Shown piece by piece: positions 40,717 through 41,349 of a DNA stretch of 64,000 nucleotides. Position numbers and translations under genes: made by a program. Source of the stretch: Escherichia phage EF1-1; the sequence record PQ571289; one strand, given 5' to 3'. Numbering within the stretch: the stretch's first letter is position 1; the number at the start of each line of letters is the position of its first letter. The notes under the pieces are model-generated. The model did no database searches. It had not been told where the DNA came from and saw nothing but the letters and a program-made list of their open reading frames with translations.

Positions 40717-41349
40717 TTAGCCTCGAAATACTGTTTTTGTTTCCGCCAGGTGCCAATAGAAATCCGCCTTGTTTACAAGAGTGTTGTACACCTCTGGATA
40801 AAAATGTTCTTCCTCTTTGTAACGATCCGCTGTTTCCCTGATTGACTTAGCTTTATCCTTTAGCCAAGCGAAGTGTGCCTCTTCCTCTGTAGCGAAGTAA
40901 CCTAAATGCTTTCCTTTGTGTCCAGATGATTTAGAAGAAATCTTACCATCGGATTTTCTTACAGTTACCCCTAAAAGAGATTTTCTTTCCGTCCTTTTTG
41001 AGTAACTTAACAGAGTATTCACATATGCTGGAACAAACCTACAATACGCTGGACAATAGACCGTATTACCTTCAAGTACAAGGTCTTTGTCCAGAACAAA
41101 GTTTGCTACAAAGTTTTCTTGATACCACATGTCGAAGTTTGAAAACATAAACCACTCGTCACAAACCGTCACACCTGTATACCCAGGTCTTGCTTGTTCC
41201 ATTTTATAGGCTCTTTCGAACATGTTTTTCCAAGCTTTGTAAGACGGGTCGGGCTTCCCGTCTACAAATAATCGTCTTTCTACATCAACTACTAAGGGGA
41301 TTTCTCCCCTTTCGGTAGTAACGGTCACTGCACGTTTACCTTTGAGCAT
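40717..41349 (-). CDS. homing-endonuclease-like protein with AP2-type DNA-binding domain
   Basis: GKHLGYFATEEEAHFAW AP2-like motif; paralog of 57489 gene; between nrdA and nrdB; AGGAGG RBS. Confidence 0.5.
   Translation of the reverse strand: MLKGKRAVTVTTERGEIPLVVDVERRLFVDGKPDPSYKAWKNMFERAYKMEQARPGYTGVTVCDEWFMFSNFDMWYQENFVANFVLDKDLVLEGNTVYCPAYCRFVPAYVNTLLSYSKRTERKSLLGVTVRKSDGKISSKSSGHKGKHLGYFATEEEAHFAWLKDKAKSIRETADRYKEEEHFYPEVYNTLVNKADFYWHLAETKTVFRG

Follow-up and report, generated by a model that had tools for sequence, protein, structure and literature searches.

IPA-HNH/AP2 homing-endonuclease-like genes between nrdA and nrdB and at a second site in Escherichia phage EF1-1

The window analysed here, a stretch of 64,000 nucleotides (nt) of Escherichia phage EF1-1 (sequence record PQ571289), comes from a Phapecoctavirus-like (phAPEC8-like, Stephanstirmvirinae) E. 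coli myovirus, and its nrd region is 95-99% identical to that of many such phages. Between nrdA and nrdB, the genes for the large and small subunits of ribonucleotide reductase (RNR), the window carries an open reading frame (ORF), here called X, and a paralog, Y, lies at a second site. By sequence comparison, X and Y are established as members of the IPA-HNH family, that is, free-standing genes of the homing-endonuclease gene (HEG) type. Comparison of related phages strongly supports recent mobility of both genes and the passage of X between phage genera. We consider it likely that X and Y are free-standing IPA-HNH homing-endonuclease genes, in which a divergent His-Me-finger-like N-terminal domain is joined to an AP2 domain, and that they work by the mechanism set out below. 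As such they represent a well-supported but ordinary example of a known family, with X occupying the hotspot where T4 carries mobE.

The original prediction, made from the sequence alone, had placed an AP2-type homing-endonuclease-like gene between nrdA and nrdB, with a second copy at 57489-58094, and had noted that T4 carries mobE in the same slot. The ORF is real, its coordinates are right, its flanking genes are those named, and the position of mobE between T4 nrdA and nrdB is confirmed. All genes treated here (nrdA, X, nrdB and Y) are carried by the minus strand:

41358..43604, minus strand: nrdA, class Ia RNR large subunit, upstream of X (ORF list, annotation of relatives, Pfam tags in related contigs)
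40717..41349, minus strand: ORF X, 210 amino acids (aa) plus TAA, free-standing IPA-HNH/AP2 homing-endonuclease-like gene (ORF list, PHROG, similarity to ICP1 gp59)
39584..40672, minus strand: nrdB, RNR small subunit, downstream of X (ORF list, annotation of relatives)
57489..58094, minus strand: ORF Y, 201 aa, paralogous IPA-HNH/AP2 gene (ORF list, alignment, Pfam, PHROG)

Family membership and domain organisation

The IPA-HNH HEGs were defined from gp59, gp115/116 and gp209 of Vibrio phage ICP1 (Barth, Dunham & Seed 2023, PMC10448857). In that study the C-terminal domain is AP2, and the N-terminal domain, too divergent for Pfam HNH_3, was assigned to HNH on the basis of HHsearch. The family was reported to be enriched in Barbaviruses and Flaumdraviruses, with 18% of its members near RNR genes. 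X and Y are placed in this family because of three kinds of similarity. First, in BLASTP X is 32% identical to ICP1 gp59 (E 9e-25) and Y is 33% identical to it (E 6e-18), both alignments spanning the N-terminal domain. Second, X and Y match PHROG 953/374/2081, 'HNH endonuclease', with E values of 1e-57 to 1e-77 (X 2.5e-57), and ICP1 gp59 matches PHROGs 953/374/2081/30929/3377/8790 as X and Y do, in the same profile range. Third, the organisms found by tblastn (Vibrio, Rheinheimera, Pseudomonas) agree with the spectrum reported in PMC10448857. Homologs of X already carry the RefSeq label 'HNH endonuclease', and neither X nor Y has an NCBIfam match. The Stephanstirmvirinae coliphages are not named in the text of PMC10448857, and its supplements do not contain phi92, ESCO5, phAPEC8, nieznany or VEcB.

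In an exhaustive profile search the family comprises 6200 clusters at 50% identity (E < 1e-30), its members being typically 190-260 aa long. Longer proteins were also seen: several of 400-570 aa hold two complete IPA-HNH modules, and P0020 (1641 aa) and P0022 (1828 aa) match the AP2 portion of the profile in 13-14 stretches, which look like AP2 domains arranged in arrays.

The X and Y proteins are 42% identical over 156 aligned residues (E 3e-26), as expected of true paralogs, and a six-frame hmmsearch of the window finds X and Y alone, with no third copy. The N-terminal motif of the original prediction, common to both proteins, reads VCDEWFMFSNF...LDKD in X and VCDEWLVFSNF...LDKD in Y, and its residues are nearly invariant throughout the family. 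At the other end of the protein, two regions correspond to AP2:

40840..40983, minus strand: predicted AP2-like DNA-binding domain of X, residues 123-170 (family profile, predicted fold, PHROG 99 AP2 region E 0.0096)
57612..57752, minus strand: Pfam AP2 match in Y, residues 115-161, 32.2 bits

The C-terminal AP2-type motif of the original prediction is found directly in Y, whose score is 1 bit under the Pfam gathering score of 33.3 (E 1.3e-7). In X, which is below Pfam detection and has no Pfam match of its own, it is reached through the family profile and the predicted fold alone. Pfam AP2 is matched by 42 of 87 family members, and the family profile matches solved AP2 domains, with WRI1 first (E 3.8e-7), followed by ERF096, TEM1 and ERF1. 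In the AlphaFold2 model of X (pLDDT 86.6), the three-strand-plus-helix fold of AP2 is predicted at residues 128-178 (strands 128-130, 137-140 and 148-152; helix 155-178) and is followed by a helical hairpin.

X and Y thus share with the ICP1 genes the combination of a divergent N-terminal HNH-like domain and a C-terminal AP2 domain, the free-standing position beside essential genes, RNR genes included, and the placement at boundaries of genetic exchange. The X clade differs from them in that it is tied to the nrdA-nrdB junction, lacks two of the family cysteines and carries a conserved internal hairpin.

Mobility of the two genes

Three tracts in the window bear on the history of X and Y:

41358..41400, minus strand: last ~14 codons of nrdA, NLKESGCEGCSM followed by the stop codon, including the C-terminal CxxC; divergent tract travelling with X
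40679..40905, minus strand: tract with 100% identity to AV125, made up of the last third of X, codon ~148 onwards, and the spacer after it (sliding-window identities)
58075..58165, minus strand: divergent tract adjoining Y, at the 3' end of its upstream neighbour (gene 58060..58413)

In close relatives, the nrdA-nrdB junction is found in four states: empty (KKP 3954), with X only (AV125, nieznany and others), with an unrelated reading frame of 339 nt, ORF339, only (ESCO13, phAPEC8), and with both (ESCO5, REC). Among the records listed, roughly 27 are empty, 11 have X only, 6 have both and 10 have ORF339 only, as judged from record spans. Most of the relatives compared lack X, with nrdA and nrdB intact. 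The suggestion that X is a mobile element in the RNR operon is borne out by this patchy presence, by an island shared between genera, by remnants of the gene and by mosaicism.

X-clade genes, 51-99% identical at the protein level, are always located between nrdA and nrdB, including those in diverged metagenomic contigs and in Justusliebigvirus, the sister genus (phi92 gp074, VEcB). A 102-nt junction between the nrdA tail and the start of X is 99-100% identical in 17 records belonging to two genera. In a comparison of AV125 with VEcB, the flanking nrdA and nrdB sequences are 65-88% identical, against 94-100% for the last ~90 nt of nrdA plus the whole of X. The nrdA tail of the window (41358..41400) shows 50-80% identity to relatives that are otherwise 98-100% identical, and the tail allele co-segregates with the type of X allele. 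The encoded NrdA tail ends in SEDEGCSACKM in X-carrying Phapecoctavirus genomes versus SDGGCEACKM in empty genomes. The X-less Justusliebigvirus phage arall natively carries the SEDEGCSACKM tail; therefore the cassette brought a Justusliebigvirus-type tail into Phapecoctavirus. A recoding of the NrdA tail that confers immunity to self-cleavage was also considered, but this idea is weakened by arall, which has the same tail natively and no X. The tract is better explained, on the sequences compared, as a co-conversion from a Justusliebigvirus-like donor.

Y shows a similar pattern at its own site. It is present in ESCO5, REC and 536P1 only and is absent from ~60 relatives. The start codon of Y falls within its upstream gene, the last ~90 nt of which match the empty allele of DE16 at 65-80% identity, against 98-100% in the surrounding DNA; the downstream junction of Y is sharp when compared with the empty allele. 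An apparent third state of the Y site, in phage vB_EcoM_01 (L007 ~1880-2400), was rejected as an assembly artefact, in which a run of N with duplicated flanks mimics a different insert.

The X allele of the window is a patchwork of at least three lineages. Upstream of ~40905 the identity to AV125 drops from 100% to ~70%, which places a recombination breakpoint inside the AP2 domain, and the synonymous divergence (dS) between the two alleles is 2.4 in the N-terminal part and 0.28 in the C-terminal part. The nrdA tail of the window and codons 1-50 of X are closest (83-90%) to the metagenomic lineage L017/L020, and codons 50-145 have no close relative. The best database protein for X is 79% identical overall, and a 99%-identical X protein was found in two sequencing runs in the same genomic context.

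Remnants of X are present in two phages. In DE16 (L025 401-515), an X-type nrdA tail, the Shine-Dalgarno sequence and ~20 nt of X are joined to the terminator through a TAAAG microhomology. In ZCKP1 (L026 801-1055), the first ~40 and the last ~150 nt of X remain. Both remnants are unannotated footprints of HEG loss. In these therapeutic-type coliphages (Phapecoctavirus, Justusliebigvirus), nature provides a clean view of the HEG life cycle at one site: invasion, spread between genera along with a short tract of co-conversion, mosaicism at the level of domains, deletion of internal sequence and almost complete loss. Moreover, the DNA for the C-terminal CxxC tail of NrdA, which is essential, is exchanged together with the element. 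Such elements make recombination hotspots, which are relevant to phage taxonomy, to engineering and to the prediction of marker exchange in phage cocktails.

ORF339 (~112 aa; L003:1660-1998 in ESCO5, L004:1660-1998 in ESCO13, and L013:4191-4532) is a second, independent presence/absence polymorphism at this junction, absent from the window. It lies between the terminator and nrdB and overlaps the start of nrdB. It belongs to PHROG 17458, of unknown function, and has no Pfam match; a relationship to T4 nrdB.1 was considered and rejected, as comparison of the two gave no sign of relation.

Mechanism and the N-terminal domain

The signals around X on which the proposed mechanism draws are the following:

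41354..41359, minus strand: Shine-Dalgarno sequence of X, AGGAGG, which shares bases with the stop codon of nrdA (TAG, 41358..41360; sequence read)
40688..40709, minus strand: intrinsic-terminator-like hairpin GGGGCTTCGGCCCC plus a T run in the spacer between X and nrdB (terminator scan, junction alignments)

The start codon of X, an ATG at 41349, is located 5 nt past AGGAGG. This arrangement of stop codon, Shine-Dalgarno sequence and start codon is common to all X alleles, some of which have a GTG start or overlap nrdA. The ribosome-binding site of nrdB comes after the terminator-like hairpin (40696..40709), and in empty alleles (for example KKP 3954) a terminator of the GGGGCTTCGGCCCC type begins 8 nt after the nrdA stop codon.

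In the proposed mechanism, X would have no promoter of its own, being transcribed with nrdA and translated from the Shine-Dalgarno sequence at the nrdA stop codon. An internal hairpin, 36 nt past the start of X, would hold down the number of transcripts or ribosomes that get beyond the first part of the gene. When a cell is infected by an X-carrying phage together with a relative that lacks X, the X protein would bind through its AP2 domain near the junction of the nrdA stop codon and the terminator, and nick or cut the DNA there. Repair by recombination from the X-carrying genome would then copy X plus the last 40-90 nt of nrdA. Y would follow the same mechanism at a different intergenic site. 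We infer that the X protein itself cleaves DNA, and likewise where it does so. The structure and conservation of its N-terminal domain bear directly on this point:

40984..41262, minus strand: N-terminal domain of X, residues 30-122, consisting of a helical part and a beta-beta-alpha core
41008..41100, minus strand: predicted beta-beta-alpha-metal motif of X, residues 84-114 (secondary structure of the model, conservation)

Modelled alone with AlphaFold2 (residues 28-122, pLDDT 90.6), the domain has three helices, a beta strand at 84-87, a 16-residue loop, a second strand at 104-107 and a helix at 108-114. The predicted topology is beta-beta-alpha, as in His-Me finger nucleases, and the predicted parts of the motif are FVLD (first strand), KDLVLEGNTVYCPAYC (loop), RFVP (second strand) and AYVNTLL (helix). 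Among ~170 family sequences, Y37, W40, R46, Y48, Y57, W66, F72, W75, L86-D87-K88-D89, Y98, C103 and N111 are 96-100% conserved; the counts are 166/170 for each of D87, K88 and D89, 169/173 for Y98, 172/173 for C103 and 168/171 for N111. In the predicted secondary structure, D87 and N111 are at the places expected for HNH metal ligands, and Y98 is within the loop joining the two strands. The family consensus also contains four cysteines, at 47, 60, 63 and 103, which probably form a zinc site; those of Y are C47, C49, C63 and C103.

In PacI, which represents His-Me finger group 20, a tyrosine stands in for the usual histidine (Jablonska et al. 2017, PMC5714182). D87, Y98 and N111 fit the arrangement of Asp, omega-loop Tyr and Asn described for PacI, the equivalence of residues being by description only. 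By this analogy, D87 and N111 may be candidate metal-binding residues of X, and Y98 and/or K88 may replace the histidine as the tyrosine does in PacI. A PacI-like active site without histidine is a suggestive, modestly novel lead. R.PacI itself (PDB 3m7k/3ldy) is rather different from X, being a rare-cutting HNH restriction enzyme that is homodimeric, has two Cys4 zinc sites and lacks AP2; X keeps half of the family cysteine cluster, and Foldseek fails to recover a match between the two. The canonical HNH-AP2 HEGs of cyanobacteria, ciliates and phages (Magnani et al. 2004; His-Me finger group 2, HNH_3 plus AP2) resemble X and Y in the fusion of AP2 to a nuclease domain within a mobile gene. 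However, their HNH_3 domain has a catalytic histidine, and the N-terminal domains of X and Y are without similarity to the HNH_3 profile.

Several results weigh against an active nuclease. The general-base histidine at the end of the first strand is absent, its place being taken by K88, and there is no conserved histidine in the domain. None of the 87 family members matches a Pfam HNH family at E <= 1, and with hhalign the probability is 0.3% against a NUMOD4/HNH_3 family alignment that started from an adjacent HEG of a related contig. Of the HNH, AP2 and NUMOD domains that the original prediction had named for profile searches, AP2 was detected (in Y and with the family profile), and Pfam HNH and NUMOD4/HNH_3 were not. 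Foldseek finds nothing in the PDB for the N-terminal domain of X, and phmmer and profile searches of PDB sequences give only chance matches for this domain (SPT16D, deoxycytidine kinase), all genuine matches being to AP2. The X clade lacks two of the four family cysteines (A47 and V60 in X) and has C99 instead. Finally, we found no demonstrated cleavage in the literature for any IPA-HNH protein, the published assignment being that made by HHsearch.

The missing histidine, the negative Pfam, hhalign and Foldseek results and the loss of two cysteines would suit an alternative in which X and Y descend from HEGs but have lost catalysis. They would now be sequence-specific DNA binders, acting as repressors or roadblocks as CasPR proteins and I-TevI can, and their patchiness would be due to ordinary recombination or to mobilisation in trans. 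There are other data consistent with this possibility. Phage AP2 proteins can be pure DNA binders, the record of phi92 says 'potential transcription factor', and the T4 nrd locus has a documented trans-mobilisation of a defunct endonuclease; strong purifying selection, too, suits any useful protein function. The closest parallel is provided by the CasPR/CapR-AP2 repressors, small phage proteins composed of an HEG-derived N-terminal module and AP2, which show that action purely through DNA binding is possible (bioRxiv 10.64898/2026.02.23.707548). They differ from X and Y in their Cys-rich CapR zinc-finger module and in their location in anti-CRISPR loci of Bacillota prophages, where they are not site-specific insertions; in X and Y the module is that of IPA-HNH, and the population genetics are like those of HEGs. 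The CapR-related Pfam families (DUF723/DUF4397) are not among the matches of the 87 family members. Moreover, D87-K88-D89, Y98 and N111 are ~97-98% conserved in ~170 diverse sequences, the pattern expected of an active site. Two paralogs at two sites each bear the signature of a free-standing HEG, namely a precise intergenic insertion and an imported tract in the upstream gene, and the cassette exchanged between genera is a tight island without any other candidate nuclease. On balance, loss of catalysis seems to us unlikely, though it deserves to be taken seriously, and an IPA-HNH endonuclease that still cleaves DNA is the preferred reading.

It is far less probable that the X of the window is a decaying, non-functional pseudogene from late in the HEG life cycle. 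The allele is a recombinant patchwork, DE16 and ZCKP1 hold copies that have truly decayed, and the window allele lacks 9 residues (EGGx and RVNTx; after residue 28, ~41251..41271) that are found in all other X-clade alleles examined. However, the loop in which the gap lies is just as short in other members of the family at large, Y among them. The ORF is full-length, has an excellent ribosome-binding site and keeps all family-invariant residues. The ratio of nonsynonymous to synonymous substitution rates (dN/dS) is 0.06-0.15 against every other X allele, and the nearly identical protein mentioned above was recovered in two independent sequencing runs. More generally, X is taken to be a functional protein rather than a pseudogene because all its alleles are intact and pairwise dN/dS is 0.05-0.2 with dS saturated, in both the N-terminal domain and the AP2 part. 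As for the idea that X is not selfish but serves the phage RNR as a conserved accessory subunit or as a regulator, X does always lie between nrdA and nrdB, is translationally linked to nrdA and travels with the CxxC tail of NrdA, but this is the least credible of the alternatives, given that most close relatives have intact nrdA and nrdB without X, that Y is in an unrelated locus, and that in many phages members of the family are found beside other genes, such as those for polymerase and terminase.

The internal hairpin and the surrounding region

A short inverted repeat lies near the beginning of X:

41294..41311, minus strand: internal hairpin AAGGGGAGAAATCCCCTT, located 36 nt past the start codon of X, stem of 7 bp, loop GAAA; proposed attenuator or weak terminator

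Comparison of eight X alleles, in which synonymous divergence is saturated, shows that the hairpin holds a 17-nt invariant run, the longest in X; the next longest is 6 nt. Third-codon positions are invariant at 5 of 6 places in the hairpin versus 12.5% gene-wide. A ninth allele, in contig L015, reads AAGGGGCGAAAGCCCCTT, a compensatory change from A-U to C-G, one side of which changes the protein from Ile to Ser. The predicted RNA fold of the hairpin has an energy of -15.7 kcal/mol (z -4.8), and an extended outer helix around it is unsupported by the consensus fold. The L015 hairpin and the terminator after X in contigs L013 and L017 have the same GGGGCGAAAGCCCC core, which suggests that the internal hairpin may have descended from the nrdA terminator. 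This conserved hairpin is previously unreported and represents a further modestly novel lead.

Comparison with T4 mobE, a free-standing HNH HEG, may provide some clues regarding its role. The mobE gene is promoterless and co-transcribed with nrdA, and a stem-loop 27 nt after its AUG is a weak terminator (Wilson & Edgell 2009, PMC2790892). X resembles mobE in occupying the slot between nrdA and nrdB, in being apparently promoterless and in directly following nrdA. Each gene has near its beginning a stem-loop, 27 nt from the start codon in mobE and 36 nt from it in X, that combines a loop of 4 nt with a short U tract, and in both cases neighbouring nrd sequence is co-converted. In contrast, MobE has a canonical Pfam HNH motif, which X has not, and a different DNA-binding part; moreover, MobE nicks downstream, in nrdB, whereas the tract imported with X is upstream, in nrdA. 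No sequence similarity between X and MobE was detected (best BLASTP E 8.4). The two are non-homologous, and therefore a mobE-like hairpin in X would be a case of convergence.

Our best guess, by analogy with mobE, is that the hairpin acts through attenuation at the RNA level. Two observations count against this idea: the hairpin of the window has a poor U tract (4 T in 8), and the terminator scan made no call at the hairpin. In addition, the conservation of the hairpin could reflect a role at the DNA level.

Both leads may be combined in one bolder proposal, namely that the IPA-HNH N-terminal domain is an active, His-less nuclease of the PacI type, using Y98 possibly helped by K88, and that X has converged on a mobE-like attenuating hairpin probably derived from the nrdA terminator. 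We offer this combination tentatively and would not yet expect it to hold in both of its parts. If true, a phage family of more than 6000 clusters would be the first homing-endonuclease family with tyrosine-based, His-less chemistry. This would establish the biochemistry of a very large nuclease family that is so far uncharacterised, and would add an instance of regulation convergent with that of T4 mobE.

Some further features of the region can be mentioned. No Rfam family was found within 39000-44000. Two genes upstream of nrdA there is another HEG hotspot: in related contigs the spacer after a thyX-like gene holds an HNH_3/NUMOD4 or a LAGLIDADG gene (L014:78-506, L015:70-489), and the corresponding spacer of the window, 44316..44380, is empty, containing neither. 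A 191-aa ORF at 46034..46609 (minus strand) contains CECEIC...QVDHIH...CKLCN, which resembles a Cys-flanked HNH/EndoVII-type motif; Pfam gives no match to it at E < 0.008 except for one chance match. Finally, downstream of nrdB, four consecutive genes at 35468..38746 (minus strand) resemble a dTDP-sugar pathway of the rmlA/B/C/D type, as judged from their translations and from Pfam tags in related contigs (Epimerase/GDP_Man_Dehyd, NTP_transferase, dTDP_sugar_isom).

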